Assembly: GCF_001412615.1 (NCBI RefSeq)
Contig: NZ_CP013011.1
Coordinates: forward strand, 750,001-782,000
Origin: Pyrodictium delaneyi
Lineage (GTDB): Archaea; Thermoproteota; Thermoprotei_A; Sulfolobales; Pyrodictiaceae
Direction: 5' to 3'
Length of the DNA: 32,000 nt
Shown piece after piece: positions 10,293-30,326 of this stretch (within the stretch, counting starts at the first letter, position 1; each line of letters starts with the position of its first letter). The notes beneath the pieces were generated by a model, which was not told the origin of the DNA, ran no database searches, and saw nothing but the letters and a program-made list of their open reading frames with translations. The position numbers and the translations under genes were made by a program.

Positions 10293-10690
10293 GACTTCTA
10301 TCCCTCAGTCTCGCTATTATATGTCTTTGCGCTCTTGTAACAGACACGCCTCCGAAACTTCTGTTGCAAACTTCAAACTCACCATACTTTTATATATATC
10401 CTCCTACCCTAATAATGCATGCCACGGGTTTCCCTAACCAACCTTGGTCAAGTCTAGCACTGAAAGGGGTTAGTTGTATGCTATCCTATTAGCACATAGC
10501 ACAGAAAGCTTTAAGCAAACCATATGCGTAGCTCCACCTTAGCTTCGAACAAGACACGAACACAGTCTTCGTGTACTCCCCCGCTGCGCGGGGGTAGATA
10601 TGTGTTATACTTTACGCTCACTCGAGTCCGACTCGATATTTCGTGTATACATTTATATTATCGTGAGGTCAACTAAATAGATTAGTTAAG

Positions 10691-11587: not shown

Positions 11588-11599
11588 CGTGGCAGCCCC

Positions 11600-12454
11600 C
11601 TAGACTCTAATTCTCGACACCATGGAGTCAACTATTACTATCACAGCAGCGCTCATCATTGGGACAAGTATAAAAGTAGAGAGGAACAATAGGCTGTCGA
11701 AGCTCAGCCCCGGTATAGGCTGGAACACTAACAAGAGCCCAACGACGCCTATGGCTACGGGGAGCATTACACTAACCGCTACGAAGACCTCAAGTATAGC
11801 CCCCAGGCTACTGGAGAGCTTCTCTATCTCTACTTCTAAGCCGTAGAGGTACTCCGTTATAGACGATAAGACTATCTCATTGACGCCAGTTCCCGTCCGA
11901 GCAGCGGCAGAAAGCCCTGCTAGAAGTCTACGGAGACTATACACTGGAGTGATTCGCGCAGCCTCCTCGAGGACGGTTTCCACTGGCATCCCAGCCTTAA
12001 TACCGGAAGCTATGTACTCGAGCTCAATGCGGAACTCACGGAGCTCCTTCAGCTCCTTCTCGTAGAGTCTCATAAATGACTCGGCGAGCCCGGCACCTGC
12101 GAGAAGCTTCGTAGCCAGCGCCTCGGCGAAGAGCAGGAACCGAGGCTCTAGACGTCCTCCACGGTTTTTATACGCGACAACAGGTATAGCAATGTAGAGC
12201 GCCAACATCAATACAAATGATGCGAATGCGGCTCCTAAGGCGGCAATGCTTGCTATAACTGGCTGAACTCCGAGTCTTAGGTACAAGGCTATCCAGACAA
12301 TCATAGCAACAGAGGAAACAACGATGACCATGACTACTAGGTAGGCTAAGGTGTAACGTTCCAGACTGGATGAGAGCCCGGACCCTAGTACGTGGTAGCG
12401 TAGGTCGGGGTTAAACCTTTCTCCCAGCCTCTCGAGCGCCTCCACTAGACCCAC
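11600..12454 (-). CDS. Type IV pilus platform protein, N-terminal half (TadC/FlaJ-like T2SSF domain)
   Basis: TM helices plus a cytoplasmic domain (RFLLFAEALATKLLAGAGLAESFMRLYEKELKELREF...GMPVETVLEEAARITP). The longest ORF starts at 12538 inside the ATPase gene. GTG codons at 12454 or 12445 are more plausible starts. It ends with a TAG that is in frame with the next ORF. Confidence 0.65.
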   Translation of the reverse strand: MGLVEALERLGERFNPDLRYHVLGSGLSSSLERYTLAYLVVMVIVVSSVAMIVWIALYLRLGVQPVIASIAALGAAFASFVLMLALYIAIPVVAYKNRGGRLEPRFLLFAEALATKLLAGAGLAESFMRLYEKELKELREFRIELEYIASGIKAGMPVETVLEEAARITPVYSLRRLLAGLSAAARTGTGVNEIVLSSITEYLYGLEVEIEKLSSSLGAILEVFVAVSVMLPVAIGVVGLLLVFQPIPGLSFDSLLFLSTFILVPMMSAAVIVIVDSMVSRIRV

Positions 12455-14030
12455 CGTCGGCAGCCTCCGCCTGGGCGGGCTTGAACACGTAAGGGTCAGT
12501 CTCGCTGACGGCCTCCTGGTATACGGAGTCGGGGTCACGCATATACATACGTATAATCTCGTGCAGCTCTAGCATATCCATCTTCTTTATAGCTGCCCAG
12601 CGTAGCACTGTGGCCCTCATCTCGAGGTCACGCCACACATCCCGAGGAGTCGTGACTAGAAGCTCTGCTATAGATTCCACGAACTTGCTGCTGCGAGATA
12701 CGAGCATCCATGTATCGCCTCGGCTATCCCACTGGAACAACCTACCTAATGTGACTTCATCATGCTCAACATCGTATAGCCTCGTCTCGTCAACTCTCGT
12801 AATCTTACGGTACACCCTGCCACCCTTCTCGATGCGGAGGATATTCACGTAGAGCTTCGCGGCCGCTATGAGGCTCTTAGGTACATTCATCGGCGGCGAA
12901 GCGAGTCTACGTATGAGTACACCTGCGGACTCAGCATGGACCGTGGTTAGGCCGCCGTGGCCCGTGGCTAGTGCCTGGAAGAAGGCGAAAGCCTCCCGGC
13001 TGCGTATCTCACCGACAATTATAACGTCGGGTCTCATACGGAGCGCGCTCTCTACCTGCGCCTGGAGTGTGACGTTTTGTACACCTGGCATATCGGAGAG
13101 ACGAGTATGCATGGCAGTCCAGTTATCGTGGAATGGTATATAGATCTCTGGTGTATCCTCAATAGTCACTATCTTGTACTCAGGCGGAAGCAGCATAGCA
13201 AGTGCGTTCAGGAGCGTGGTCTTGCCAGAGCCCGTGGGTCCATAGATAACAACACCCTGCTTATACTGTATAGCTGCCCAGAGAAGAGCCGCAACACCCT
13301 CGTCAAGTGTCCCACGGTTAATCAACTCGACGATTGTGAAGGGCTCAGCCCTGAACTTACGCACAGTAAAGCTGTGGCCTCGCCGCGACACTATATCAAG
13401 TACAATATGGACACGGTAGCCTTCAGGACGCAGCACACCCTCCACGATAGGCCTAGCGAGGCTAGGCTCACGGCCAGCCCGTAGCGCGAGCTTCATAACA
13501 ACTCGCTCTAGCTCGACCGGATCGCTAAAGGTAAGCCCGCTAGTCAGCCACTCGAACTCAGTATGATAAACGAACACTGGAGTGTAGAGCCCGTTGCACG
13601 ATATGTCTTCGATATAGGGATCCCTTATCATAGGGTCAAGACGGCCATAGCCAACAAGGTCTCGCGCTATATAGTAAGCTACGCCTAGAGCCTCCTGCTC
13701 GGGGTCACGACCTAGCCTCCTTAGCCTCCCCTTCCACCGCTTAATAACACTGTGAGCAAGCTTGTATGCCTCGCGTAATCCTTCGCCGAGATCCTCAAGC
13801 TCGGAGAATCTACGGAGAAGGCGTAAGTCGTTCATTATGCGTGAGAGAATTATGCTATAGGCCTTCTTACCTATATCCGTAAGCTGGGGCTCTTCGACAT
13901 GGTAGAAACGTCGGCCGTCAACGTCCTCAACTATGCGAACAACTATTGATGGTTCATCAAGAACACTATATTCGCTAAGAGTTTCGACAGTTCTCCCATC
14001 GGCTTGTTTGTTCTCGGCCAACCTCTCCAC
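12411..14030 (-). CDS. Type II/IV secretion-family ATPase (FlaI/ArlI/TadA-like pilus assembly ATPase)
   Basis: Walker A VIYGPTGSGKTTLLNAL, Walker B/Asp box RPDVIIVGEIR, His box ATGHGGLTTVHAES, and an N-terminal YHVEEPQLT motif typical of archaeal FlaI-like ATPases. GTG start. Confidence 0.9.
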   Translation of the reverse strand: MERLAENKQADGRTVETLSEYSVLDEPSIVVRIVEDVDGRRFYHVEEPQLTDIGKKAYSIILSRIMNDLRLLRRFSELEDLGEGLREAYKLAHSVIKRWKGRLRRLGRDPEQEALGVAYYIARDLVGYGRLDPMIRDPYIEDISCNGLYTPVFVYHTEFEWLTSGLTFSDPVELERVVMKLALRAGREPSLARPIVEGVLRPEGYRVHIVLDIVSRRGHSFTVRKFRAEPFTIVELINRGTLDEGVAALLWAAIQYKQGVVIYGPTGSGKTTLLNALAMLLPPEYKIVTIEDTPEIYIPFHDNWTAMHTRLSDMPGVQNVTLQAQVESALRMRPDVIIVGEIRSREAFAFFQALATGHGGLTTVHAESAGVLIRRLASPPMNVPKSLIAAAKLYVNILRIEKGGRVYRKITRVDETRLYDVEHDEVTLGRLFQWDSRGDTWMLVSRSSKFVESIAELLVTTPRDVWRDLEMRATVLRWAAIKKMDMLELHEIIRMYMRDPDSVYQEAVSETDPYVFKPAQAEAADGGSSGGAREAGRKV

Positions 14031-15508: not shown

Positions 15509-17263
15509 ATGGTGTCAATGTTCATTGTCATAGCAATACTAGTCTTACTCGAATACATTCCTATGGGAAATGAAGGATACATGTCAAGTACTGTAAAGAG
15601 TTCTCCAGAGCAATCTATGTATACGAATACGGATAACTCAACGAAGATTAATTCTGAAGGTAGTAGCAACAATACCGTGACGAGCTGGTCGTCGATTTCC
15701 AGTAACGAGATTGCTAGAACAATGGATGCCACAGAAAACGAAGATATAGAGACCAAGATGACTGGCGTTGTTACTGTCACTACTACTACCACTGTGTTAG
15801 AAGAAAACAAGTTAATGCAGGATAACTTCCAATGGGAGCCTCCAGTTGTCAAATGGAGTTGGAAATGGATAGAACTAGGATGGAGGGGTCTCGTTGATGT
15901 CGAGACGACTAAGTTGCTTTCGAAGGGCTGTAGGTTTGATCCCGGCGTGTTTAACGAGTCTGCTGTAAGGTGCAGCTTGCTCCAGGCGCCTGCATTTACA
16001 AGATTGGCTCGAGCTTTAGCAGAGAATTCTTCTAGTATACTTGAGACAGCTGCGCGAGTTGCTGTATGGACGGCACTACATACCAAGTATATACCAGACG
16101 GCGAAGGCGTCGAGTACGTGTATACACCAGCAGAGACTCTTACACGAGGTGGGGGTGACTGTGAGGACCGTGCTCTCCTTGAGGCTGCGCTCCTCATAGC
16201 AGCGGGGATAGATAATGTAGTGCTGGTATCCTTTGAGTTTAACGATACTGACATAGGACACGTAGAGGCCGGAGTAATAGTTAATGGTACCCTTTATCTT
16301 CTGCCGCCAGTTAATGTTTCACTGCCTCTTGAACTCGAAGACTATGCAGGCTACATGTCGTTGCAGGGCTATAGGTTAGCCAGTGTAAAAGTCTATAACG
16401 TCAAAGTCTCTAGAAATGATGGAGCACTAGTAATAAGAGTAGGTGCTGAAGAACTCAGACCTCCTATGCCTCCAACAGAGCCTTGGAGACCCCCAAGAGC
16501 TTATCTTGATGTACTCGAAACTGAAGTTTTGCAGCTAATAGAGGGCCTTTACGGGAAGCCTCCTTGTCCCGGGTTTGTGCAGAGAGTGGTAGACTGGATG
16601 GCCGGCTATCTGCCGGAGCAGGAGCCGCCAATGATTCCGGTTGGCTACTACATGTATGCAGTGCCAATTACATTGTATAAGTCAAAACCTCTCTCCTATG
16701 CCATTGTGGAGGCACGTATTTACCTCGCATCGATGTTGGCCCAGGGGTTAGACCATTGGCTACGGGAGGAGAATCACTGGTGTGTAGTTGTTCACGCCGA
16801 AGCAGAGAATGTTGAAATGCAGTTATTCCGTTATACGCCTGGTGGCGCTCTGAAGGCTTATACCGGCCTTGCGCCGGCTACGGTGCTCCACGTGTTTAGC
16901 GGGCCCTGGCTACCCTGGTTTACGGCGAACGTAACCCTTGAAGATGGTCGACTAGTAATATACTCGAAGAACAATATCACTTCAATACTTGTCTACGGTG
17001 CGGGTATTGGTGACGATCTTGTAGAGCTAGTTGGCGTAGCTAAGCCCGGGGCCTTCTACCCCGGCTTGGAGACTGTAGAGGCTCTCAACTGGACCACGGA
17101 ATATAATGGATCCCTGATAGTGATTGAATATAGTAAATTGCTTGGTGCTGTCGAAGAGAAGGCTTCTAGATTGGGTGTTGAGCCTCCATTTCTCCTAGTA
17201 GTTTGGTCGGGCGACCGGGAGTTATACGAGATGCTTCTTGTGCCCCGAGATAATGGGGGCTAA
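15509..17263 (+). CDS. Membrane-anchored exoprotein with a transglutaminase-like (Cys-protease fold) domain
   Basis: N-terminal TM (FIVIAILVLLEYI), an AT-rich S/T/N low-complexity linker (VVTVTTTTTV), a TGase-core motif TLTRGGGDCEDRALLEAALLIAAGI (Cys218) followed by DIGHVEAGV, and at least 10 N-X-S/T sequons. Confidence 0.7.
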   Translation: MVSMFIVIAILVLLEYIPMGNEGYMSSTVKSSPEQSMYTNTDNSTKINSEGSSNNTVTSWSSISSNEIARTMDATENEDIETKMTGVVTVTTTTTVLEENKLMQDNFQWEPPVVKWSWKWIELGWRGLVDVETTKLLSKGCRFDPGVFNESAVRCSLLQAPAFTRLARALAENSSSILETAARVAVWTALHTKYIPDGEGVEYVYTPAETLTRGGGDCEDRALLEAALLIAAGIDNVVLVSFEFNDTDIGHVEAGVIVNGTLYLLPPVNVSLPLELEDYAGYMSLQGYRLASVKVYNVKVSRNDGALVIRVGAEELRPPMPPTEPWRPPRAYLDVLETEVLQLIEGLYGKPPCPGFVQRVVDWMAGYLPEQEPPMIPVGYYMYAVPITLYKSKPLSYAIVEARIYLASMLAQGLDHWLREENHWCVVVHAEAENVEMQLFRYTPGGALKAYTGLAPATVLHVFSGPWLPWFTANVTLEDGRLVIYSKNNITSILVYGAGIGDDLVELVGVAKPGAFYPGLETVEALNWTTEYNGSLIVIEYSKLLGAVEEKASRLGVEPPFLLVVWSGDRELYEMLLVPRDNGG

Positions 17264-18384: not shown

Positions 18385-19569
18385 ATGATCAGGAGTTCTA
18401 TGAGGCTCGATATGAAGGGCTTTAGCCGTACTAAGCTAGCAGGAGCTATTGTAGTAGCGATTACGGCACTAGCAGCGTTAATAGTATTTGTATCAATAAT
18501 GGTTGATGTTGATGCGTCGAAAGTATATACAGAATTCCTCGAAGGCGGTTACACGATTACGAGTAGCAAGCTCTTCCAAGAAAAGGTTCTAGATACTGGC
18601 GGAGCCGTAGCTGTAATGTTCCGTTCAGACACGTGTCCGACATGTGAACGTATGTACCCGTACTGGAGGATGCTCGAGGAGAAGGCCTTGTCTCTAGGAT
18701 TTAAAGCCTATGATGTGAAACTCACACGGGACACTAGCACTATATTCAACAAGTACATGGTTCAAGATCTTCCTACATTTATAGTATTCTACGATGGCAA
18801 GCCCATAGCCAGGTACGTGGGTCCATTCACACCTGAGGACGGAAACGTGACCAGGGCGATGATAGACTGGGTGCTAGGTGCTCTCGAGGGCCGCAGTCTC
18901 GGGGCCGAGAAGGCTGAGTCGGCCACAGACCAGCAGACGTGGGCGGCGGGAGCGGCGTTAGCAGCCTCTGTAGCAGCTGCAGCGGCTGCCGGTGTTGTGT
19001 CGGCTTTCTCTCCTTGTGTCCTACCGCTGCTCATAACCAATAGTGTTGCTCTAGCTCGGCGTCGCAAGAATCCAGGTATAGCCGGCTGCTTAGTCTGCAG
19101 CCTCTCAGCCTTTGCCGGCATCATGGCTGTAGGTGTAGTGTTCCTATTAGCCTCCGGCCTCCTTGCCGGAGTACAAACAGTGCTCACGGGAATTGTAGCC
19201 GTGGCAGTGATGGCGGCAGGTATTTCATCACTGTTCGGCCTTCCTGCCGAGATACCAGTTACTCGCAGTATCCGCTCTGGCAGCCTAGCAGCATTTTGCG
19301 GACTTTACGGGTTCTTGGCTCTTCAGTGTAACCTTCCTCTAGTCGTCGGCGCGTTACTGCTAGTAGCGGGTAGTGGTGGCTTCACCCAGGGCTTGCTTGT
19401 GCTCCTTGCATTCTCGCTGGGTCTCTCCCTACCGCTTTCTGTAGCTGTCTACTTCGGCCCCCGTCTAGCTGTGCTAACGAGCCGAACGGGGGTACTCGAA
19501 AGACTAGGAGGCGCCGTGATGGTTCTCGCTGGAGCCGTGCTCCTAGCCTACAGCCTAGGCCTCATATAG
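18385..19569 (+). CDS. ccdA: Thioredoxin-domain/CcdA(DsbD-core) fusion: cytochrome c maturation thiol-reduction protein
   Basis: N-terminal TM, then an extracytoplasmic Trx fold with FRSDTCPTCERMYPYW (CxxC at nt 18634-18645). A 6-TM CcdA core follows, with both conserved Cys motifs (SAFSPCVLPLL and ALQCNLPLVVG). Confidence 0.85.
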   Translation: MIRSSMRLDMKGFSRTKLAGAIVVAITALAALIVFVSIMVDVDASKVYTEFLEGGYTITSSKLFQEKVLDTGGAVAVMFRSDTCPTCERMYPYWRMLEEKALSLGFKAYDVKLTRDTSTIFNKYMVQDLPTFIVFYDGKPIARYVGPFTPEDGNVTRAMIDWVLGALEGRSLGAEKAESATDQQTWAAGAALAASVAAAAAAGVVSAFSPCVLPLLITNSVALARRRKNPGIAGCLVCSLSAFAGIMAVGVVFLLASGLLAGVQTVLTGIVAVAVMAAGISSLFGLPAEIPVTRSIRSGSLAAFCGLYGFLALQCNLPLVVGALLLVAGSGGFTQGLLVLLAFSLGLSLPLSVAVYFGPRLAVLTSRTGVLERLGGAVMVLAGAVLLAYSLGLI

Positions 19570-19600
19570 CACAATTACGTATGAGAGGTGGTGCATTGTA

Positions 19601-22588
19601 ATGGCTATACATTATACGGGTATAGTCCCTGCGGCAGCTGCACTCGTCTACGTAGCGGCACTAGCTTACATGCTTCTCCGCCGCGATATTGAGATATCTG
19701 CTAAACTTGTAAAGAGGGCTGCTATACTCACTATAGTAGGCTGGCTAATATACTGGATACCATTTGCGATACTAGATTATAGTCTCCGCGAAGTATTCTG
19801 GAATACTAGTCCAGGGCTCCCTCTATGGATGAGGCTTGCCTCGGCCTGGGCGGGTGGAGGAGGAAGCCTATACCTATTCGCAACAATATCGGCCATAGCA
19901 ACACTCTATGTAATCCGTAGCCTAGCAGAAGCTAAGAAGCAGGATATTCTGGTAATGGGTACTGCTGCTGTAACGCTGGCAGCCATAGTTAGCGCATTCG
20001 CTAACGGCGCCTTCAGCGTGATGGAGGAACGCCCGGCTAGCGGTGCTGGGCTTAACCCGCTGCTTAAGAGTCCGTGGCTCTACCCGCACCCCCTCAGTAC
20101 CTTCGGCGGCTACGCGCTACTCGCGGTAGGCATGCTAGCACTGCTCGCGGGGCTACGCCGCCGCGGCTTCCTAGTCTACGAGCTTGGCTGGGCTCTCCTA
20201 ACCCTCGGCATCATGATTGGCGGCTACTGGAGCTACGAGACCTTCGGCTGGGGAGGCTACTGGGCATGGGACCCCGTAGAGACAAGCGAACTAATGGTAT
20301 GGCTTGCAGCCACGCTGCTACCTCACGCTATGGTGGCCGTGCCGAGCCTAGTCGCGTTCACCGAGTACCTAACGCTTTCTAGCGTATTCCTCGGCATGTA
20401 CGTGACGCGTAGCGGGCTCAGCCCTCTCCACAGCTTCGCCGCAGCCAACATAGGTGTGCTAGTACTCCTCGCCGTAGCCCTTGTTACACTCTTCCTCGCA
20501 TTCCGCCGGCTAGGCGAGTTCCGCCTCCCAAGCCTAGAGAATGTGCGAAGGAGCCCCTTCCAGGCAGGCATGCTGATAGCCACCATAGCCCTCTTCGCAG
20601 CGACCGTATTTGTCTACGCGACACTGCTTCTCCCCTCAGTACTCACTGCCGCCGGGTACGAGGCTAGTGTTCCTCAGATGCAGAGTGGTGTACGCTACTT
20701 CCACCCCGTACTCTACCCGCTACTAGTAGCGATGCTAGCAGCAATCCCGCTAGCATTCACAGGAGACAAACTAGGATGGAAAGGATACACAGCACTACTC
20801 CTAACAACAACAATAGTGTCGATACTAGCTGGGCTTGCGGCGTTTCAAGGCTCTCTTGTGCTTGCGCCACTCAGCAGCAGAGAGACAAATGCATTGATGG
20901 CCTTTGGGCTTCCCTGGGCTGGGCTTGCAGCTGCTGCAACGATACTCTACATAGCTCTGCGGCTACGTAACCGCGGCGGTAGACTCGCATGGGAGCGCAT
21001 GACGGGGATCAGTCTGCTACACCTGGGTCTAGCTGTTGTCGTCATCGGTGTCTTGCTCAGCGGTACATACTCGTTCAACGAGGCCTATTTCATCGATGCT
21101 AGTCTGAAGCCCGGCGAGCCTCTCGTACTCCCGAATGGTGTGAAAATAGAGCTTGTTGATTATCGGTTCGAGCTAAGCAACTCCATGGTAGACATTTATA
21201 CAGGCTATGCAGGGAGAGCGACTAGCTATCTTCTCGCCTGGAATACTTTGGCGATGTTGGCCTCAGACTACGGCCAGAAGGTTAAGCAAGCGCTTGAGGC
21301 TGAGAAGCTGCTTGAGGCAAACGAAACACTACGTACCCTTGTTGAGCTGGCTGTAAAGGCTCATATCTCCGCAACACGCGGCAACATCACTATAACAGGC
21401 GCCGCTAATGTGACAGGTATAGACCTATTCACGGGAGCCAAGACACCTATAGCAGAAAACATAAACATAACAATAGAACTCGTGAATCCAAGAGTTATGG
21501 CGGCCCTAGAGCCTCTACGGGACAATCTAGGCAGGGTAAAAGCCGCCAAACTCCGCATATACATTAGTGCTGATGAAGCCATTGTGGCGGGGCTACTGGG
21601 CGGCAACATTACAGCCCGCACGGTACTCGATATAGGGTTCGCGGATCCGGTAAAACTAGTGCTTGGGAATACATCGTTTGAGATAAGTCAATTGTACCTC
21701 TTAGCGACAGGCCATACCGGTCACCCAGCAGTAGAACATCGAGGCAATACCTTCACCTATAAGCCCGTAGTGGTTATCCCGAGCGGCCGTGTAGAGGTAG
21801 GAGGATACCATATCGCTAATCCGCTAGACGTGCCAGCGAGCCTCGCAGCTTACATAGAGAGTCGCCGGGATCCCTTCCTACAGAGACTTCTCAACAGCGG
21901 CCTAGCTGAGATACTGAGCAGCGATGCTGTAGTGAAAGCTCTGAACCCTCCAGGCTGTGAACCAGTAGCAGAGACACCTCACGGAGGTTGCTTCGGCTAC
22001 GTGGATGTACCTCGCACGGTTCCCGAGACTGCATGGCTAATTCTAGACCTACGTATTGAACGTGGTGATAAGGTACGTGAGGAGACTGTTGGACTCCGGT
22101 TCGAGTCGTACGGAGAAGTACAGGGTATACACGGCCTAGTAACTAAGGTTGTACATCCCCGGGTAGGACTCACAGACGTCTACATAGCGATACATGCGCC
22201 AGTGGTTACTCCAGAGTGGGGGGTCGCCGGGTACCATGAACTATTGGTCTACTATCTACACGCGGTGTACCAGTCGATGAACCTGACGCCTGCCCAGCGT
22301 ATAGCCCTAGCAGCACTCATGGCTTCAGGCTACATGATGGATACAGCTCTCTCGATAAACGATCCAGCTCAGCGCGGCCGCTTCCTCGAGCAAGCAGCGC
22401 TCGAACTCTACTTGCTGGCAGAGAGCTTCAATCCTCAGAACACCACCATAGTTCGGCAGGGACTCCCTATCCAGGTCAAACTGGTCCCGGGTGTAGCGCT
22501 AGTATGGTATGGTACAGTGATCATGGCGGCTTCAGCAGTCTATACAGCTATCATTGCAGCATATACTGCGAGGAAGGGACGCGCATAA
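19601..22588 (+). CDS. ccmF: CcmF-type cytochrome c haem lyase (System I) with a greatly expanded extracytoplasmic domain
   Basis: Collinear with E. coli CcmF (from memory): WMRLASAWAGGGGSLYLF; GLNPLLKSPWLYPHPLSTFGGY (P-His1); WWD motif WGGYWAWDPVETSELMVWL (nt 20249-20284); LLPHAM (TM-His1); YVTRSGLSPLHSFA (P-His2); LLHLGLAVVVIGV (TM-His2). It is 995 aa against roughly 650 for typical CcmF. Confidence 0.9.
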   Translation: MAIHYTGIVPAAAALVYVAALAYMLLRRDIEISAKLVKRAAILTIVGWLIYWIPFAILDYSLREVFWNTSPGLPLWMRLASAWAGGGGSLYLFATISAIATLYVIRSLAEAKKQDILVMGTAAVTLAAIVSAFANGAFSVMEERPASGAGLNPLLKSPWLYPHPLSTFGGYALLAVGMLALLAGLRRRGFLVYELGWALLTLGIMIGGYWSYETFGWGGYWAWDPVETSELMVWLAATLLPHAMVAVPSLVAFTEYLTLSSVFLGMYVTRSGLSPLHSFAAANIGVLVLLAVALVTLFLAFRRLGEFRLPSLENVRRSPFQAGMLIATIALFAATVFVYATLLLPSVLTAAGYEASVPQMQSGVRYFHPVLYPLLVAMLAAIPLAFTGDKLGWKGYTALLLTTTIVSILAGLAAFQGSLVLAPLSSRETNALMAFGLPWAGLAAAATILYIALRLRNRGGRLAWERMTGISLLHLGLAVVVIGVLLSGTYSFNEAYFIDASLKPGEPLVLPNGVKIELVDYRFELSNSMVDIYTGYAGRATSYLLAWNTLAMLASDYGQKVKQALEAEKLLEANETLRTLVELAVKAHISATRGNITITGAANVTGIDLFTGAKTPIAENINITIELVNPRVMAALEPLRDNLGRVKAAKLRIYISADEAIVAGLLGGNITARTVLDIGFADPVKLVLGNTSFEISQLYLLATGHTGHPAVEHRGNTFTYKPVVVIPSGRVEVGGYHIANPLDVPASLAAYIESRRDPFLQRLLNSGLAEILSSDAVVKALNPPGCEPVAETPHGGCFGYVDVPRTVPETAWLILDLRIERGDKVREETVGLRFESYGEVQGIHGLVTKVVHPRVGLTDVYIAIHAPVVTPEWGVAGYHELLVYYLHAVYQSMNLTPAQRIALAALMASGYMMDTALSINDPAQRGRFLEQAALELYLLAESFNPQNTTIVRQGLPIQVKLVPGVALVWYGTVIMAASAVYTAIIAAYTARKGRA

Positions 22589-22625
22589 GGGAGTGAGGGC
22601 TATCCTGCTTACTCCATTTGACTAA

Positions 22626-22656
22626 TTTTCTCTCAATTGTATTTTTCTTTTGTTTC
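22626..22656 (+). terminator. T-rich tract after ccmF (possible archaeal oligo-T terminator)
   Basis: AATTTTCTCTCAATTGTATTTTTCTTTTGTTT begins about 40 nt after the stop and includes a T5 run. Confidence 0.35.
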
Positions 22657-22729
22657 GGAGCCACCGATATTAAGTACTTCTAAACAGAGAGCTACACGAT
22701 AAGCGGCGAGTGTAGCGAGGAATCCGGCG

Positions 22730-23713
22730 TTGGAGCGCACGAGCCTCGTAATTCTGGTGCTACTTGTAGCTCTGGCAGCCTCGAATGCTGCCTGGGTGAC
22801 GCTCTACAGCCATAGCAAGTACAATACGGAGAACCTACTTGAGGAGAATCAGAGGCTGAGTCGGCAGCTAGAACTACTTGCCAACAAGGTTAAGGAATTA
22901 GATGAGAATAATACGAGACTTTTGCTCCAGCTCCGTGACATCAGTACTCGCTATCAGCGGCTCCTCGGTCTACTACAGCAAGCTAATAGCACTATAGCTA
23001 ATGCAGCTGTAGTGGCAAGGCTAATCGAAAACCTCAACACAAGCCTAACAACACTCTACACCTACACGAATACACATGCCTACTACACTCCGCGCGTGCG
23101 CAGCCTCTTCACACCAGGCTCTGTAGCAGACCTAGTAATGGCGATAACAGGGCACCCAGTTTACACCCAAGGCTCAGCACTCCAGGATATGGAGAAGCTC
23201 TACGACTGGGTCCAGGAGAACATACAAGACGCGCCGGACCATAACTTCGTTGCCGTGAAGGACCCGGAGTACGTGGAGATAGGTGGCTCCAAGTACATCT
23301 ACAGCTTCCAGATAGACATAGTAGACAACTATATACAGTCACCGTCAGAGACCCTACAACGCATGGCCGGTGACTGCGAGGACCAGTCGATACTGCTAGC
23401 GTCCATGTATAAGATCTACTTAGGAGACGTTGGTGATGCATGGGTTCTCTGCATGTTCTCGGATAAGTACGACCACTGCGTAGCAATAGCGTGGATCGGG
23501 CCTGAGAAGACCTTCATACTTGCAGATCCCACGCTAGACTACTACGGCAAAGCTGAGAGCCTACGTAGTGTTCTCGATGACTGGCTAGGATACGTGGGCA
23601 TGTCCATGGAACAGGTACGCAGGATGGTGGCGTTCAACAACAAGGAGTACATCGAGGATGTACCTTACAATGTCATTCACACAATTGAGGAGAAGACCCT
23701 TGGTCAAGGCTAG
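22730..23713 (+). CDS. Membrane-anchored coiled-coil exoprotein with a transglutaminase-like domain
   Basis: N-terminal TM (LVILVLLVALAASNAAW), a heptad-like region (LLEENQRLSRQLELLANKVKELDENNTRLLLQL), and a TGase triad candidate: MAGDCEDQSILLASMY (Cys216), YDHCVAIAW (His), FILADPT (Asp). TTG start. Confidence 0.7.
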   Translation: MERTSLVILVLLVALAASNAAWVTLYSHSKYNTENLLEENQRLSRQLELLANKVKELDENNTRLLLQLRDISTRYQRLLGLLQQANSTIANAAVVARLIENLNTSLTTLYTYTNTHAYYTPRVRSLFTPGSVADLVMAITGHPVYTQGSALQDMEKLYDWVQENIQDAPDHNFVAVKDPEYVEIGGSKYIYSFQIDIVDNYIQSPSETLQRMAGDCEDQSILLASMYKIYLGDVGDAWVLCMFSDKYDHCVAIAWIGPEKTFILADPTLDYYGKAESLRSVLDDWLGYVGMSMEQVRRMVAFNNKEYIEDVPYNVIHTIEEKTLGQG

Positions 23714-23732
23714 ATGTCCAAGGTGATAATCC

Positions 23733-24464
23733 ATGCATCGCGTAGCTGCAGTCCTAGCCCTACTACTTATAGCAAAACTAGCTGTAATCGCGCCAGCACA
23801 GGCCGCGGAAAGACTGGAAGTCAAGATATATCATGCAGAGCTAGGCCCCTTCATACAGACACTCGCAGACGGCCGCCGGATAATGGTGAAGATAGACGTC
23901 TACTTCCCCGACACGCTTGTCTACCGTGGCCCCGAGGAGGGTCTTGGCACAGTAAACTTCACAATAACTACTAACTGGACTGGTCCCTGGGACGGCATAG
24001 TAACGGTACAAGTAGTCGACCCAGGCTACCACATTGATCCAACTACGTTCAAGCCCGTCGAGTCGGTGAATGCGTGGGCTGAGGGCGGCGACACGGTTGG
24101 TACTGGGGCGCTCCACATAGCTAGTGGCGCCTATACGGGCAGCGTCAAGAACATGACCGTGGTGTTGAGGCCCCACGAGCGCTACTTTACTGCTCCTAGT
24201 GGCGAGTACACGGCACAATACTTCTTCAAAGCCCGGCTAGCATTCTTCAAGCCTGATGGCAGCAAAGTGCTGGGAGGCGATGTGAACATCTACACGGATA
24301 GCGAAACAGCACCAATGATCAAACTGATAGTAGTCAAGGAACCCGAAGCTGGGGGCGACAATAGGCTGGCAGGCTCTATAGCACTAAATGCTGGTATAGC
24401 AGCGGCAGTAGTAGCTGTAGGCTACGCTGTAGTAGAGTATCTTGTGAGGCGTAAACGAGGCTAG
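23733..24464 (+). CDS. Secreted, C-terminally membrane-anchored beta-rich protein of unknown function
   Basis: Signal peptide MHRVAAVLALLLIAKLAVIAPAQA|AE, three N-X-T sequons, and a C-terminal TM plus basic tail (AAVVAVGYAVVEYLVRRKRG). AAGGTGA lies 6 nt before the ATG. Confidence 0.6.
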   Translation: MHRVAAVLALLLIAKLAVIAPAQAAERLEVKIYHAELGPFIQTLADGRRIMVKIDVYFPDTLVYRGPEEGLGTVNFTITTNWTGPWDGIVTVQVVDPGYHIDPTTFKPVESVNAWAEGGDTVGTGALHIASGAYTGSVKNMTVVLRPHERYFTAPSGEYTAQYFFKARLAFFKPDGSKVLGGDVNIYTDSETAPMIKLIVVKEPEAGGDNRLAGSIALNAGIAAAVVAVGYAVVEYLVRRKRG

Positions 24465-24473
24465 ACCCCGGTC

Positions 24474-24478
24474 TTTTT
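24474..24478 (+). terminator. Oligo-T tract after 23733-24464
   Basis: CCCCGGTCTTTTTGA lies 10 nt after the stop and is followed by a 374-nt non-coding spacer. Confidence 0.35.
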
Positions 24479-24764
24479 GACAACCAGTCGTACATAATGC
24501 CTGGGTATGTCCTTGGTTTCTCGGCCACAATATTCCATTGTAAAGCCTCCAGAATCCTACCATGCCCTTGTAGTCTTTGTCGCTGCTATGTCTCCCTCGG
24601 AGCCCCTAGTGTGCTCTAAACTGGGCTATCACTGCATTGTGTAGCATCATTTAATCTTTGTAAACTTATTCTAAGCTATTCTAGGGTTTTCATGTGTTAA
24701 AATGACTGCTCAGTACCAGGACGGAGACAAACTTTTATTGATGCATCAAATATCTCGCTCAACG

Positions 24765-24791
24765 TAAAAATAATAAATTAAATTTAAATAA
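24765..24791 (+). promoter_or_regulatory. AT-only block (TATA/BRE candidate) upstream of the octahaem cytochrome gene
   Basis: 27 consecutive A/T (TAAAAATAATAAATTAAATTTAAATAA) end 48 nt before the ATG. AAGGTGGGAGG immediately precedes the ATG at 24839. Confidence 0.45.
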
Positions 24792-24838
24792 CATGTAGAA
24801 CTCACATTGAAGCTGGACAAGCAGTGTAAGGTGGGAGG

Positions 24839-26827
24839 ATGCAAAAACCCTTAGCCAAGATTGTAGTCTTTTGGGTAATAGCACTCTTCCTCCTTCCCAG
24901 CATAGCACCCCTAGCAAGAGCAGCAACCTACAGCTGGGGCGAAGAGATCAGCCTCTCAGGTGTACAGCTAACAACAGAGTCTAAGGACTGTGTAGAGTGC
25001 CACATGCGTGCTACACCCTTCATAGTATACGACTGGTATAAGAGCAAGCACCGCATGGTCGGCGTAGGCTGCTACGAGTGTCACAGTGCTAAGCCCGGAA
25101 CAAGGCCCGACGTCTACGAGCACTACGGCTACTACATAACAACCCTAGTGACGCCCAAGCAGTGTGGCCGCTGCCACCCCGCAATAGCCGAGGAGTTCCA
25201 GAAGAGCGTCCACGCGTTCGCCGGAGTACACGCCTACGTGCTGAAGGAGGAGCCAGCCTACTGGATGATCCTAGCGAAGCAGTTTGGCTGGGACGAGCAC
25301 TTCAAGGTGCCAGCCGAGTATATCGAGACGGAGTGGGTACCTAAGATAGTGCGTGACTTCGTCGGCGATCAGAATTACGGTAAAGTCGTGCTAGAAGAGG
25401 ATCCAACCAACGCTATAATCCCGTACAACCCGCTTGGCCTAAGTATTGACAACTACGTTGCCCAGAAGGCCCTCTACATCTGGGGTATACGCGGCTGTCT
25501 AGGATGCCACGGCGTACGTATGGACGTCAAGGACGCGTTTGCCTTCCCGAGTCTAGACGAGCTAATGCAGTACATGAAGGAGGGCAAGGCTCCCGAGAAG
25601 GTAGTGTATGACCCGGCGTTCATGCACAACCACGGTATCGGCCGCGTGAACCCTGACGGCAGTCTAGGCAGCTGTGAGGCATGCCACCCGTATCACGGCT
25701 TCAGCGTAAAGATAGCCAGGAAGGGCGCCTACCAGGCATGTGGCCGCTGCCACACGGGACCAGACCATCCGAACGACGAGCAGTGGAGTAAGAGCGTACA
25801 CGGCGCCATATTCTGGGGCGAGGCCGAGGACTGGGACTGGGACAAGCCTGTCAACAACTGGATGCCAGGCCGCGACTACAGGGCACCCACATGTGTAACC
25901 TGCCACATGGCTGCAGTGTTCAACGAGCGTGGCGAGGTCAAGTATGCTAGCAGCCACGACGTAGCCATAATCAGCAAGTTCAAGCTAGGCAAGTGGGTAT
26001 ACACTCTACCGCGTGTAGCTGGCCTGCCAGATTTCGCAATACCGACAGCCACAGCGACCCAGGCACCTGTATTCAAGAGCCCGACAACAGGCGACACGAT
26101 AACACTAGTCTACCCAGAGCCCGACTGGAAGGCACGCAGACAGAGAGCAATTGACATGTGTGCCCAGTGCCACACCAAGGAGTACGCGGCGGCATGGTTG
26201 AAGACCTACGACTGGATGATCATACTAGTAGACTACATGAGAGACGAGTACGTACTAACCGTAGCCAACATGCTGAAGGCAAAGGGTCTATTCACACCAA
26301 TGGACGAGTGGATGGTGAGAAACCTAGGTGCTATGGCCAATAGGCCCACTAAGATGTCTGCAGCACACTTCGGCCCCGACTTCACCTGGTGGGAGGGCAT
26401 AATGCACTTCGCTGAGAAGATAGAGGAGTGGCTAATCGATGTATACGAGAGGCCTGCTGTAGCCAAGAAGGCGCCAGAGATACGCGAGAAGATCGAAGAG
26501 ATACTGCCATGGTTCAAGGAGCAGTGGGAGGGCGAGGGCAGCACTGGCACAGTACACAGCCTTGCAGAGGTGAAGACAGCTATCGCTAAGGCCGTCGAGG
26601 CGCCGAGCATAGAGGCCTATGCTCAGAAGGTAGAGACCCTAGAACCGCCAGCAAAGCCGCTAGTAGCCAAGGCGCCGGTGAAGACCCTAGGTGAGGTCAG
26701 CGAGTTCAGCCTAACACTGCCAGGCAGCGATGCTAGCCGCGAGGTGCCGGTAGCAGTATTCGCGGTGTTCCCGGCAGCACCTCTACTACTAGTCTTCGTA
26801 TCCAGAAAGCGCGCTGTAGCAGCATAA
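24839..26827 (+). CDS. Octahaem c-type cytochrome of the hydroxylamine oxidoreductase (HAO) family, membrane-anchored
   Basis: Eight CXXCH motifs (CVECH, CYECH, CGRCH, CLGCH, CEACH, CGRCH, CVTCH, CAQCH). Several blocks are collinear with Nitrosomonas HAO (see findings). It has a signal peptide (...LARA|AT) and a C-terminal stalk plus TM anchor ([21 protein letters not shown]). Confidence 0.9.
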   Translation: [662 protein letters not shown]

Positions 26828-26862
26828 GCTGGGCAAGGGGGAGAGACTAGACCACCCGGTGA

Positions 26863-26867
26863 TTTTT
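26863..26867 (+). terminator. Oligo-T tract after the octahaem gene
   Basis: GGTGATTTTTCTTCTCC lies about 35 nt after the stop. An imperfect hairpin (TTCCGG...CCGGAA) follows. Confidence 0.3.
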
Positions 26868-26999
26868 CTTCTCCTCCAAGACCTCTTTGAATCCCTCCTT
26901 CTCGTTTCCGGCTCTTTCGCTCCGCCGGAAGATAACGTACCTAACTTTATCAAGGAGCTGTATGGCTTTGGAGACTAATATGGGGTTAGGGGAGACCAG

Positions 27000-28898
27000 T
27001 TGTACTGGGAGCCAGCACTTTACCTAGCTCTCTCGGCTGAGGCGATCGCAGCAGCCTACGCGGTAGGTAGGGGGATGCGAGAGGGGTATGATAGACCCTT
27101 CGAGACTGGACCGGTATACCGTGTAGGCCTCGTGCTTACGGCGGTTTCTTTCCTGCTCGCGCTACGCTTCGACGTAATGGTGACTGTGCCTAGTCTCATG
27201 CTGCTCGCGTCTAGTCTAGCAGTCCTCGCGGGAGCCCGGCTACGGTTGAGAATGAGTCCAGTTGAAGCACTAGCCTCCACCATAGCCTTTTACTCGTTCG
27301 CTCTAGCATCGCTCGCTGCCCGTGCAGCAGTGCTCGACCTGGATCCACGTGGTGAAGCACTACTTCCGTGGGTTCTGTTAACGCTGGCGGCTGGCTGGGG
27401 CCTACTAGCGGCATTGGTAACCATGAGCGAACCCCAGAGGAGCATTGCTGCAGTCATGGGTCTACTTGGCGGTGTAGGACTGGCGGCTCTAGGTTTCTGG
27501 CTGCTCTTCAATACTAGGATCGGATCGCCGCTTTACGGGGACGCACTCAGTATGGCTCTGCTCGCGCTGCTAGTAACTGGTGCTGCCATTGCTTCAAGGT
27601 TATCCCCATACCTGGTGCTGGCATCCGGCGTGATTGCGGCTCTCCTCGCGGGCCGCTCGCTTCTCGCGGGTGGTGTCCCCTACATAGCTTGCACAGGTAG
27701 CTGCGGCTCCCTGGCCACGGCATGGCTCATATTCGTCATAGTCGTGGCCGCGCCTCGGCTATACCTCGAAGCCGAGACGGTACGTGGAAGGATGCGTGCT
27801 GCTGGGCTGGAGACAGTGTTCTCGCCCTCCACACTTGCCTCGGCTTCGGTGCTGCTGGCGGGACTAGCTGCATGGGCTTCACTTCAAGGCTCGTTGAGCA
27901 TAGGTACCGTAGCTGCTGTGAGCGTATTAGTGGCCTCAGCTGCTGCTGGCGGGGGCTCTGCTTCGGCGCTTGTGCTATTCCTAGGCGCTATAGCTGCTAT
28001 CTACAGTCCCGCACTAGGCATAGTGGTTTCTGCTATAGCGGCTGTTGCGGTTCCAGCACTGCTACGGAACCAGCGACTAGGTCCATTAAATCCCCCTAAG
28101 GGCCTCGTGTACGGGCTATTGCTGGTGGTCATTGGGCTTGCTGCAGGAGGCTACATAGCAGCTACGCTTGGTCACAGTATGCAAGCTGAAGCCTCGATAA
28201 CAGTAGCTGGGCTTGGGCCCGCTAAGCTAGTGCAGCCGCCAAGCGACGAGGTGACGCACGCCTTCTTCCAGCTCTATCTCGGCGTCAAGAACGAGACATT
28301 GCTATACGCGCTACTCGCGCCGAAGCTGGGCAAAGATGAGGCACTAAAAATGGTTGAGTTTGCTCATGCCGTCCGCTTGGCAGCTGAAAAGCGTGGGATA
28401 AACGACCCCTATAACATAACCGAGCTTGATATACCTCGTAAAATGCCTAGCCTCGAGACCAGGATCGAAACCAATGGCGTATCAGCGACAGTGAATGTAC
28501 CGGCTTCAAGTATACTCTACGGCCATCCATACACTAGCGGTGTCGAGAGGGCCGGGCTTGACCTCGTATCCGTCACGCTGCCTAGCAATGTCACTAAGGC
28601 ATTGACTGATATCTACCTCCGCTTAGTCTCTGATCCAAAGCTAGCTGGTGATGATGCTCTTCGCTACACGATATTTGCCGCAATGGCTGTAAGCTGGAGA
28701 GAAACGGGCACCCTGAATATGACGGCGCAGCTGATCTTCGATTCGTTGCTCGGTAACAATACTGTGGCTAACCACGTGTCTTCGGAGGTTAGCGTCGCAA
28801 GAGCCTCGTTAGGCGTTATTGCCCTAGTTGTCTACATGGGGTGCCTGGTTGCTGCTCCTGTCGCACCACTTCTGGTCAATGTTCGTAGAAGCGGCTAG
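27000..28898 (+). CDS. Large polytopic membrane protein with a C-terminal extracytoplasmic domain and terminal TM; unknown function
   Basis: 632 aa. About 12 Ala/Leu/Gly-rich TM helices (aa 1-400), a ~200-aa soluble domain with five N-X-S/T sequons, and a final TM (LGVIALVVYMGCLVAAPVAPLLV). TTG start with AGGGGAG 7 nt upstream. No CXXCH motif. Confidence 0.6.
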   Translation: MYWEPALYLALSAEAIAAAYAVGRGMREGYDRPFETGPVYRVGLVLTAVSFLLALRFDVMVTVPSLMLLASSLAVLAGARLRLRMSPVEALASTIAFYSFALASLAARAAVLDLDPRGEALLPWVLLTLAAGWGLLAALVTMSEPQRSIAAVMGLLGGVGLAALGFWLLFNTRIGSPLYGDALSMALLALLVTGAAIASRLSPYLVLASGVIAALLAGRSLLAGGVPYIACTGSCGSLATAWLIFVIVVAAPRLYLEAETVRGRMRAAGLETVFSPSTLASASVLLAGLAAWASLQGSLSIGTVAAVSVLVASAAAGGGSASALVLFLGAIAAIYSPALGIVVSAIAAVAVPALLRNQRLGPLNPPKGLVYGLLLVVIGLAAGGYIAATLGHSMQAEASITVAGLGPAKLVQPPSDEVTHAFFQLYLGVKNETLLYALLAPKLGKDEALKMVEFAHAVRLAAEKRGINDPYNITELDIPRKMPSLETRIETNGVSATVNVPASSILYGHPYTSGVERAGLDLVSVTLPSNVTKALTDIYLRLVSDPKLAGDDALRYTIFAAMAVSWRETGTLNMTAQLIFDSLLGNNTVANHVSSEVSVARASLGVIALVVYMGCLVAAPVAPLLVNVRRSG

Positions 28899-28928
28899 AT
28901 AATTAATTGTTTAGGTTGAATGTATCGA

Positions 28929-28935
28929 TTTTTTT
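28929..28935 (+). promoter_or_regulatory. T7/TTTTTTTAAG element: TATA-like box for the 13-haem gene (or terminator of the upstream gene)
   Basis: CGATTTTTTTAAGAC is centred about 29 nt upstream of the ATG at 28962. No SD-like sequence intervenes, which fits a leaderless transcript. The same T7 run lies 31 nt after the upstream stop. Confidence 0.35.
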
Positions 28936-28961
28936 AAGACAAAGGCTAAAAGCTATTGTAA

Positions 28962-30272
28962 ATGCTCTTTCCTATAAAACTGGTGGAGGGAGGCGAGGCT
29001 ACAGTGGACACCACGAAAGCCGCCAGGACGCTGATAATAGTAGCGGTATTTCTAGTAGCACTCTTTGCTTACTGGCAGCTGACAGTGCCAGGATACTTTA
29101 AGGGCGTAGAGTTATGTGGCAAAGGCTGCCACGTGACCAGCGTCCTCGACTACGAGAAGATAAACCACCCCTTCTGGTGTATAGGCTGCCACGGGTTCGG
29201 CGTAAAGAGCGAGATCCTGCCCGGGATCCCGCTCTACCGGGACCACGAGCTAGAGATGCTAGTGGAGGAGCACGGCGAGTGCCTAATGTGCCATCGTGTA
29301 CCCGGAGAGTTCCACTGGAAGCACATTAACGCAACTGAGGAAGACCTAGCCAAGCTAGAGCTAATGCGCCCGGTACAGTGTACAGATTGTCACACCACAG
29401 CCTACCATGGAGGTCACAAGGACAGGCCAAAGGATGACGTATGTCTAAAATGTCACGATGCCGAGAAGCTTCATCCAGATATGAATAAAAAATTGGTCGC
29501 AGCTTGCACCAAGTGCCACTCTGAGGAGCCTGCTGTAGACTGGGCGATTTTCAAGAAGGGTCAGATAGGCTACGGGTTTGTAGCTGACGCAGGCCTAGCA
29601 CTTGCAGCAGACCTCGGCGTAGTGAAAACAACGGCCCCGGGCTGTCTCCTTTGCCACAATATACCGGAGACACAGGGTCACCTAAAACACATGGGCAAAG
29701 AATACAATGGTAAACGGGTAGAGTGTCTAGATTGTCACAAGAATGATATACCCCATGGCGAGAAGATAGGAACGAACGTATGTCTCGACTGTCATAATCC
29801 CAAGGAGACTAAATGCCATGACAAGGGCTTTGAGGAGTTCCTACTAGACTGTTACCGGTGCCATGGCGGCTTCGCGCTGGCTAATGAGACGCTCTACCTG
29901 GCCGGCAAAGGCTGTGAAGGCTGTCACGGCGACACTCTCGAGAAGGTTGTAGGCATAGGGCTACACTCTAGCCACATACCCTACTATGCGTGCAGCAAAT
30001 GCCATGACGTTGAATCGGGAAGCCATAGCCGATTCGTAGAGTCTGCAAGCGATCCAGAGAAGTGCCTCGACTGCCACACGAAGGCCGCAGGAGTCAAGTC
30101 TGAGGCGCTTCAGGGACTGAGAACTAGTACAGCCCTATCATTCAGCGAAGACATTAGACATGTAGAGCTAGTGGAGAAGGCTAAAGGCAATTGCCTCAAG
30201 TGCCACGACGAGTGGCATGTGGCAGGCAAGCCTAGGATAATCTACGGCAAGAGTAAAGGGGAGGGAAGCTAG
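28962..30272 (+). CDS. Membrane-anchored multihaem c-type cytochrome (13 CXXCH + 1 CX3CH)
   Basis: N-terminal TM anchor (TLIIVAVFLVALFAYWQLTV). Motifs in order: CGKGCH (CX3CH), CIGCH, CLMCH, CTDCH, CLKCH, CTKCH, CLLCH, CLDCH, CLDCH, CYRCH, CEGCH, CSKCH, CLDCH, CLKCH, in 436 aa. Many extra His residues are available as distal ligands. Confidence 0.9.
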   Translation: MLFPIKLVEGGEATVDTTKAARTLIIVAVFLVALFAYWQLTVPGYFKGVELCGKGCHVTSVLDYEKINHPFWCIGCHGFGVKSEILPGIPLYRDHELEMLVEEHGECLMCHRVPGEFHWKHINATEEDLAKLELMRPVQCTDCHTTAYHGGHKDRPKDDVCLKCHDAEKLHPDMNKKLVAACTKCHSEEPAVDWAIFKKGQIGYGFVADAGLALAADLGVVKTTAPGCLLCHNIPETQGHLKHMGKEYNGKRVECLDCHKNDIPHGEKIGTNVCLDCHNPKETKCHDKGFEEFLLDCYRCHGGFALANETLYLAGKGCEGCHGDTLEKVVGIGLHSSHIPYYACSKCHDVESGSHSRFVESASDPEKCLDCHTKAAGVKSEALQGLRTSTALSFSEDIRHVELVEKAKGNCLKCHDEWHVAGKPRIIYGKSKGEGS

Positions 30273-30326
30273 TCATGTACATTCTCATTCCTCTTAGAAG
30301 TGTGGATAGGAGGTGGCATGTAAACC

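Follow-up and report, generated by a model that had tools for sequence, protein, structure and literature searches.

A divergent CcmF haem lyase at the P. delaneyi locus

The 32,000-nucleotide stretch of Pyrodictium delaneyi DNA that we analysed (contig NZ_CP013011.1, positions 750,001 to 782,000; hereafter the window, from whose first letter positions are counted) carries on its forward strand an open reading frame (ORF), 19601..22588, that encodes a 995-amino-acid (aa) paralogue of the haem lyase CcmF. The gene lies directly downstream of a thioredoxin-CcdA gene and upstream of genes for multihaem cytochromes, and the last extracytoplasmic domain of its product (hereafter the ectodomain) is the subject of this work. 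The sole Pfam match on the protein was PF01578 (cytochrome c assembly; aa 89-271, score 66.7 against a cut-off of 29.9). The NCBIfam model for CcmF/NrfE, TIGR00353, covered only aa 54-506 and missed its cut-off (129.3 bits vs 569); the protein represents a divergent subfamily. Among solved structures, the CcmF of T. thermophilus (6ZMQ) was the only one related by sequence, being aligned over aa 33-493, and a profile of 112 homologues aligned in hhalign with E. coli CcmF (aa 35-522 with E. coli residues 40-534, probability 99.9).

The transmembrane haem-lyase core (aa 1-493; 19601..21079, + strand) was delimited by its invariant columns and by the hhalign alignment to E. coli CcmF. The two periplasmic and two transmembrane histidines expected of CcmF/NrfE proteins were all matched: H163, H242, H277 and H474, invariant in the 112 homologues, aligned to H173, H261, H303 and H491 of the E. 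coli protein. The WWD motif, WGGYWAWDP at aa 217-225, had WGGWWFWDP as its E. coli counterpart in the alignment; G216-W217, G219-W221 and W223-E227 were invariant in the same homologues, and G218 and A222 were conserved in at least 90%. A full-length AlphaFold2 model gave a predicted local distance difference test score (pLDDT) of 93.0 and a predicted template modelling score (pTM) of 0.89, with pLDDT above 90 in the core except at the WWD loop (aa 218-221). When this model was searched against the PDB by fold, 6ZMQ was retrieved (E 2.1e-9, probability 1.00, target-normalised TM-score 0.64), and no other entry at E<0.1. By sequence and by predicted structure, the 995-aa protein belongs to the true CcmF haem lyases of System I, and the intact core with four conserved histidines and WWD motif, described in a first-pass annotation of this DNA, stands in full.

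The same annotation had drawn attention to positions 21068-22475, which correspond to aa 490-959 of CcmF, that is, to its last extracytoplasmic domain. By hydropathy, aa 494-957 are free of membrane-spanning segments, and a single last transmembrane helix comes after them. The ectodomain spans aa 494-962 and comprises 469 aa, about four times the bacterial size; only ∼97 residues separate the equivalent helices of E. coli CcmF. As comparators we used 80 CcmF genes, mostly bacterial and three of them from Bathyarchaeia, which came from a scan of genome contigs with the full protein; the scan had pulled in bacterial CcmFs through the WGGYWAWD pattern and no close relatives, and these loci became the comparison set. 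The sequence that follows the conserved core measured 120-175 aa in 62 of the 80, against 502 aa in P. delaneyi CcmF. The oversized last ectodomain on an intact core is thus borne out by measurement.

Two insertions enlarge a bacterial-type beta cap

The bacterial counterpart of the ectodomain is a beta-stranded periplasmic domain, here called the cap, which has been proposed to lie directly above the haem and may gate the access of CXXCH motifs (PMC10663686). A profile of this domain was made from 62 ordinary CcmFs and compared with the archaeal alignment. With the alignment uncut, only the ends matched: the preceding transmembrane helix plus the first strands, and the last strand plus the final transmembrane helix. 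With aa 537-805 and 869-949 excised, the remainder was colinear with the bacterial profile over 156 columns (probability 99.5, hhalign score 118.4). Control constructs, in which arbitrary beta segments occupied the middle position or the middle piece was omitted, scored 101.9-104.3. A model with a single insertion, in which all of aa 537 to ∼930 would be new, was rejected because it scored 104.3 vs 118.4 for the two-insertion construct. The extra sequence therefore consists of two lineage-specific insertions grafted on a conserved bacterial-type beta cap: the CcmF-type C-terminal periplasmic beta-domain and final transmembrane helix are present, broken up by the two insertions. The single insertion of ∼350 residues described in the first-pass annotation is corrected accordingly to two pieces, of ∼269 and ∼81 aa.

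The order of elements was read from the alignments and from an ectodomain-only AlphaFold2 model (pLDDT 94.1, pTM 0.89). The N-terminal strands of the cap (aa 494-536; 21080..21208, + strand) correspond by homology (hhalign) to the first part of the periplasmic domain in bacteria, and were modelled at aa 498-502, 515-525 and 529-531. Insertion 1 (aa 537-805, ∼269 aa; 21209..22015, + strand), delimited by predicted secondary structure and alignment, begins with three helices (aa 541-586) and continues with about 12 long antiparallel strands (588-745), four short helices (746-781) and a loop (∼782-805) that holds C786 and C797. An internal duplication in its beta-rich part was considered and rejected (hhalign probability 4%). 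The cap core (aa 806-868; 22016..22204, + strand), a beta-hairpin with the signature 'IRFEANGExQGIHGLVxKV...DxY', was modelled as a long hairpin plus further strands (aa 806-864). Insertion 2 (aa 869-949, ∼81 aa; 22205..22447, + strand) is a block of mainly four longer helices, with the motifs YHELLxYYLH, RLALAALMAAGY and DLYLLA; helices in and around it were modelled at aa 880-892, 897-911, 913-918, 922-941 and 949-953. The last cap strand (aa 955-963) and the final transmembrane helix (aa 965-994; together 22448..22585, + strand) aligned to E. coli residues 601-635. In the full-length model, the pLDDT of 93.0 and pTM of 0.89 indicate that the ectodomain is placed at a defined position on the membrane core.

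Of the correspondences with E. coli CcmF claimed earlier for the C-terminal end, that of the last strand and transmembrane helix was confirmed, and that of GLTDVYIAIH with ITRDLYAALG was colinear after excision, although weak when taken alone. The middle piece (aa 806-868) is probably homologous to the DLY-containing strands of the bacterial cap. In support of this assignment, a 'D-x-Y' strand, a helical insert of variable length and then the last strand were found alike in a short Pyrodictiaceae CcmF and in Solirubrobacterales CcmFs. The P. delaneyi protein shares with bacterial CcmF (E. coli; T. thermophilus 6ZMQ) the membrane core, the WWD motif and the four histidine ligands, and likewise the succession of periplasmic beta-domain, last strand and C-terminal transmembrane helix. 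It differs in the size of its cap (469 aa vs ∼100 aa), in the two insertions, which have no bacterial counterpart, in having no CcmH partner and in its probable N-glycosylation.

Conservation is concentrated in the cap core and sequons in insertion 1

Conservation within the ectodomain was markedly uneven. Insertion 1 was poorly conserved (column identity ∼0.24-0.37), and the cap core was the best-conserved stretch. Residues R833, G838, E839, G842, G845, Y861, Y885 and K960 were invariant in 119 sequences; ectodomain residues invariant in this set fell in the cap core, the start of insertion 2 or the last strand, and none in insertion 1. At the start of insertion 2, the invariant Y885 was accompanied by H879 (95% conserved), and in the last strand the invariant K960 by P963 (98%). 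The only cysteines of the ectodomain, C786 and C797, form a CX10C pair that is kept in ∼60% of homologues and is most simply interpreted as a structural disulfide.

The eight N-X-S/T sequons reported in the first-pass annotation (NETL, NITI, NVTG, NINIT, NITA, NTSF, NLTP and NTTI) were all found, at aa 574, 595, 603, 622, 669, 690, 894 and 947, six of them inside insertion 1. Composition-preserving shuffles of the ectodomain gave 2.0 ± 1.2 sequons, about a fourth of the number observed, so that the excess is not an effect of composition. The same enrichment was seen across 112 homologues, with a mean of 9.1 sequons vs 2.5 expected (mean z 4.6), of which 7.5 lay in insertion 1. The ectodomain is probably N-glycosylated, as judged from these counts.

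The long form is a trait of Thermoprotei CcmF proteins

A search of 5.8 billion proteins yielded 111 colinear homologues, 930-1072 aa long, in genomes and metagenomes of independent origin. Their hosts include Pyrodictium abyssi, P. delaneyi, P. occultum, Hyperthermus, Pyrofollis, Pyrolobus, three species of Ignicoccus, Aeropyrum pernix (999 aa), many metagenome-assembled genomes (MAGs) of Desulfurococcales and one MAG of Korarchaeota (a partial protein of 897 aa). When the ectodomain alone was searched against 1.84 billion cluster representatives, 49 matches were obtained, nearly all of them CcmFs of 850-1065 aa or CcmF fragments; the more distant ones came from Acidilobaceae (1060 aa), Aeropyrum, Thermoproteus (851 aa) and Pyrobaculum ferrireducens (881 aa). 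The Pyrobaculum protein was colinear from end to end, with a shorter insertion 1. In contrast, Bathyarchaeia CcmFs are short (∼650 aa), and Methanosarcina CcmF is split in two genes (PMC9084895), with no report of such a domain. The long form is therefore a Thermoprotei trait and not one general to archaea: in the proteins searched it was universal in the class, shortened in Thermoproteales, and restricted to CcmF proteins. That the insertion might be universal and already described in archaeal CcmF, an outcome foreseen in the first-pass annotation, proved true as to its universality within Thermoprotei; it is not archaea-wide, and no description of it was found. An additional CcmF of ordinary size was noticed in a Pyrodictiaceae MAG (L004, contig WAQK01000046.1; ORF from ∼477). 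This protein of at most 642 aa, with an ectodomain of ∼130 aa, was ∼30% identical to P. delaneyi CcmF and represents either a second, bacterial-size type in the family or a binning contaminant.

Enlarged ectodomains were also found in CcmFs of Holophagales (∼240 aa), Ignavibacteria (∼223 aa) and Solirubrobacterales (∼177 aa). The insertions occupy the same cap loops as in P. delaneyi, and the Solirubrobacterales proteins have a helical, non-homologous insert just before the last strand, at the site of insertion 2. These expansions are, however, smaller; profiles of insertions 1 and 2 showed no homology to the enlarged bacterial CcmFs, and we regard them as independent events.

The ectodomain matches no known fold or family in the searches made

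Foldseek searches with the modelled ectodomain gave no PDB match at E<0.001 (best E 0.047, TM-score at most 0.1) and nothing significant among the predicted viral structures of BFVD (best E 0.006, query TM-score at most 0.16). The sub-threshold matches to OmpA/Ail-type barrels and phage tail-tube proteins were rejected, their TM-scores being at most ∼0.36 on the target and 0.16 on the query. No CcmH entry was present among the best 50 PDB matches, and no TPR or CcsBA chain among the Foldseek matches. At E<=1, Pfam returned nothing on aa 494-995, including CcmH (PF03918), TPR and ResB, and NCBIfam nothing on the ectodomain; no CXXC motif was present in it. By these tests the ectodomain is not CcmH-, CcmI- or CcsB-like, and the resemblance to CcmH or CcmI that a fold search might have brought out was not seen. 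A profile of insertion 1 found no match among PDB sequences. Its word-index search of the 5.8-billion-protein collection also returned zero matches, but it missed members of the family itself and is uninformative. A 3015-aa protein (P0123) with 16 matches to the first helix of insertion 1 was discarded, since its PKD/REJ repeats multiply a short motif.

The enlarged ectodomain was not found described in the searchable literature, and it is not mentioned in the portions searched of PMC4429474, PMC9084895, PMC9012536 and PMC5556600. Databases have long contained the large CcmFs under nonspecific labels, for example 'cytochrome c biogenesis protein CcsA'. What appears to be new is the enlarged ectodomain of unclassified fold, the enzyme and the insertion-tolerant site being already known.

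ccmF lies in a conserved module with a thioredoxin-CcdA gene and multihaem cytochromes

The gene directly upstream of ccmF (18385..19569, + strand) encodes a 394-aa protein that combines an N-terminal transmembrane segment with a thioredoxin domain (PF00085; CPTC at aa 84) and a CcdA/DsbD-like membrane domain, to which aa 173-365 were assigned by weak matches to DsbD and TsoB. The CPTC motif is also that of E. coli CcmG. Both copies of the long ccmF in P. abyssi, as well as that of A. pernix, are immediately preceded by the gene for this partner; in I. hospitalis the partner gene is located nearby. In an alphaproteobacterial MAG (L047, ORF from 9808), we came across a CcmF whose cap is of normal size and is followed by an additional transmembrane helix and, at the C-terminus, by a thioredoxin domain (WCAPC). 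This fusion of CcmF with CcmG, not homologous to insertion 1 or 2, is another route by which a thiol-reducing partner is built into the lyase.

The two genes open a module of eight (window 18385-31073) that is kept gene for gene in P. abyssi (L086, 8765-21573). Its order is thioredoxin-CcdA, CcmF, a 327-aa protein, a 243-aa protein, an 8-haem cytochrome (662 aa), a 632-aa protein, a cytochrome with 13 CXXCH motifs (436 aa) and a 248-aa protein. Both cytochromes use ordinary CXXCH motifs only, with no CXXCK. An exact-sequence search placed the window on contig NCQP01000001 of assembly GCA_002194565.1, the draft genome of P. delaneyi strain Hulk (PMC5556600). The ccmF of the module is a second paralogue, which probably corresponds to Pdsh_01745 of that strain; we base this tag on its position beside the cytochrome genes Pdsh_01720 and Pdsh_01730, not on annotation. 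The main copy, Pdsh_09015, sits with ccmA, ccmB and ccmC elsewhere in the genome. Both Pyrodictium paralogues carry the long ectodomain, that of the main ccm cluster included. CcmF paralogues can be dedicated to particular cytochromes, as are NrfE and the CcmF2 of anaerobic methanotrophic archaea (ANME; PMC9012536). By analogy with NrfE, or with ANME CcmF2 beside MHC-B, the module looks like a dedicated maturation-plus-cytochrome cassette: here too a second ccmF, separate from the main ccmABC(E)F cluster, lies beside multihaem cytochrome genes. The likeness does not extend to the cytochromes, which have CXXCH and not CXXCK, or to the big ectodomain, which is not specific to one paralogue.

A further observation concerns CcmE, which was not identified in strain Hulk according to its genome paper (PMC5556600). 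In the main ccm cluster of P. abyssi (L083, 12188-12709), ccmC is followed by a 173-aa ORF with an N-terminal membrane anchor and no Pfam match, whose product ends in '...EGCHESYQ' and so holds the CxxxY motif of archaeal-type CcmE. The missing CcmE of Hulk is probably an annotation gap.

The enlarged cap as a putative vestibule over the haem-attachment site

The explanation that we favour, with a probability of roughly 0.55 that rests mostly on its structural part, is that the cap has been enlarged throughout the class and forms a rigid vestibule, covered by glycans, above the site of haem attachment. According to this proposal, the lyase would face the exterior behind nothing but the surface layer, at 85-110 °C, and the enlarged cap would form a rigid, glycan-shielded space above the active site. 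The conserved surface of the cap core and insertion 2 could make contact with the substrate, CcmE or the thioredoxin partner, and the fast-evolving, sequon-rich insertion 1 would serve mainly as scaffold or shield. Thiol-reducing chemistry, which in bacteria is the job of CcmH/CcmG, would be provided by the upstream thioredoxin-CcdA fusion and not by the ectodomain. For a chamber over the active site, the analogy that we favour is CcsB/CcsBA of System II, in which a large beta-rich extracytoplasmic domain likewise lies over a WWD-type haem site (PMC10663686), although no sequence or fold similarity to it was detected and the position in the polypeptide is different.

Several points weigh against this explanation. 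Its anatomical basis is least secure in the middle of the cap: the piece with the DVY ~ DLY anchor scored by itself just E 0.0012 (probability 19%), which makes its assignment probable and not certain, and in the uncut hhalign run the bacterial DLY was paired instead with the archaeal 'DLYLLA' helix. The position of the vestibule over the WWD site, as well as any groove or cavity in it, is putative, and what the enlarged cap does is something we infer. The long form also occurs in Ignicoccus, an archaeon with an outer membrane, so that exposure at the surface is a weaker argument when taken by itself. Finally, hyperthermophilic archaea with cytochromes c also exist in Archaeoglobales, and the archaea compared with Thermoprotei here were Bathyarchaeia and Methanosarcina.

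The proposal bears on how haem is attached in archaea that lack CcmH, CcmI and CcmD, a question that PMC9084895 acknowledges as open. Only the Methanosarcina system has so far been studied genetically. At the place that in bacterial CcmF covers the haem-attachment site, Thermoprotei CcmFs add ∼350 confidently foldable, unclassifiable residues; their hosts produce multihaem cytochromes with which they respire iron and nitrate near 100 °C. A domain that handles substrate or CcmE would represent a third cytochrome c synthase architecture besides CcmFH(I) and CcsBA, and one that acts as a glycan shield would be an adaptation of an exposed membrane enzyme in hyperthermophilic archaea, most of which have no outer membrane. 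In either case it offers a well-defined structural target, and the labels 'CcsA' and 'cytochrome c assembly protein' mask a distinct subfamily.

A more specific role, close to what had been suggested in the first-pass annotation, is that the ectodomain replaces CcmH/CcmI by binding unfolded apocytochrome c and presenting its CXXCH to the active site, as holdase and positioning device. Archaeal System I is described as having no CcmH, CcmI or CcmD (PMC9084895, PMC4429474), the AlphaFold2 model positions the ectodomain on the lyase core with confidence, and polar or aromatic residues such as R833, E839, Y861, Y885 and K960 are invariant. In addition, the ectodomains of the Pyrodictium paralogues are 36-39% identical, vs 49-50% for the whole proteins, a greater divergence that could reflect substrate specialisation. 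Yet the likeness to CcmH/CcmI would consist of a hypothetical apocytochrome-handling job beside CcmF and nothing else, since the ectodomain has no CXXC, no CcmH or TPR signature in Pfam and no fold match. CcmABCEF is sufficient in Methanosarcina, with a split CcmF (PMC9084895), and Bathyarchaeia CcmFs are short. Most of the added mass lies in insertion 1, whose weak conservation and probable glycan cover would be unusual for a substrate-binding surface. With no CcmH/CcmI feature in the ectodomain and thiol chemistry available from the upstream thioredoxin-CcdA protein, the suggestion that the ectodomain takes over CcmH-type handling of apocytochromes fared poorly, and we consider the replacement doubtful.

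The opposite possibility, a purely structural or environmental elaboration that stabilises or spaces the enzyme within a glycosylated envelope and handles neither substrate nor haem, agrees with the weak conservation, variable length (shorter in Pyrobaculum) and dense sequons of insertion 1, and with the fact that all the host genera named are known hyperthermophiles. The independent, non-homologous expansions in Holophagales, Ignavibacteria and Solirubrobacterales likewise indicate that the cap site tolerates insertions. Against it stand the strongly conserved motifs of insertion 2, where Y885 is invariant and H879 95% conserved, and the retention of the entire 469-aa architecture in different orders, a sign of something beyond neutral decoration. 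We therefore regard a purely structural role as unlikely.

At the other extreme, the ectodomain might be an unrecognised fold that makes CcmF a self-contained cytochrome c synthase, that is, a glycan-shielded closed chamber that captures the apocytochrome, docks CcmE and replaces the CcmH/CcmI module. If true, this would explain how at least one archaeal class manages without CcmH/CcmI; as an account of the whole domain, it is tentative and we do not expect it to hold.

That the lyase is adapted to very large substrates with 8-14 haems, which had also been put forward at first, is suggested by the presence of this ccmF copy in a module with 8-CXXCH and 13-CXXCH cytochromes conserved in P. abyssi, and by the cytochrome-dedicated paralogues NrfE and ANME CcmF2 (PMC9012536). 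The distribution of the long form contradicts it. Both paralogues are long, including that of the main ccm cluster, and so is the 999-aa protein of A. pernix, an archaeon in which the one cytochrome c identified has a single haem (PMC4429474); the adjacent cytochromes, moreover, have ordinary CXXCH motifs. Any substrate dedication would thus be a property of the paralogue and not of the insertions, and we judge adaptation to multihaem substrates very improbable. An assembly or annotation error that fused a neighbour in frame, the remaining doubt raised in the first-pass annotation, has a negligible probability given 111 colinear homologues of 930-1072 aa from independent sources, a final strand and transmembrane helix homologous to the bacterial CcmF C-terminus and a single-chain model with pTM 0.89.

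Other genes of the window

The thioredoxin-ccmF pair has a transglutaminase-like (DUF553) membrane protein on either side: one of 584 aa upstream (15509-17263, + strand; E 3e-14) and the 327-aa protein of the module downstream (22730-23713, + strand; E 0.01). The downstream slot in P. abyssi is occupied by a 313-aa ORF, alike by size alone. Among the remaining module members, the 243-aa protein (23733-24464, + strand) contains three sequons in addition to a signal-like N-terminus and an anchor at the C-terminus, and the genes for the 632-aa (27000-28898, + strand) and 248-aa (30327-31073, + strand) proteins stand among those for the multihaem cytochromes. Pfam gave no match on these three conserved proteins, which are candidate partners of the cytochromes, for example in a surface electron conduit. 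The window also encodes, on the reverse strand, glutamyl-tRNA reductase (HemA; 1219-2625), the enzyme of the first step of haem synthesis. Upstream of the cassette, again on the reverse strand, lie genes for a KaiC-like ATPase, two T2SS-F-like membrane proteins and a T2SS-E-like ATPase (8745-14030), a type IV pilus or archaellum-like assembly set that is syntenic in P. abyssi (L086).

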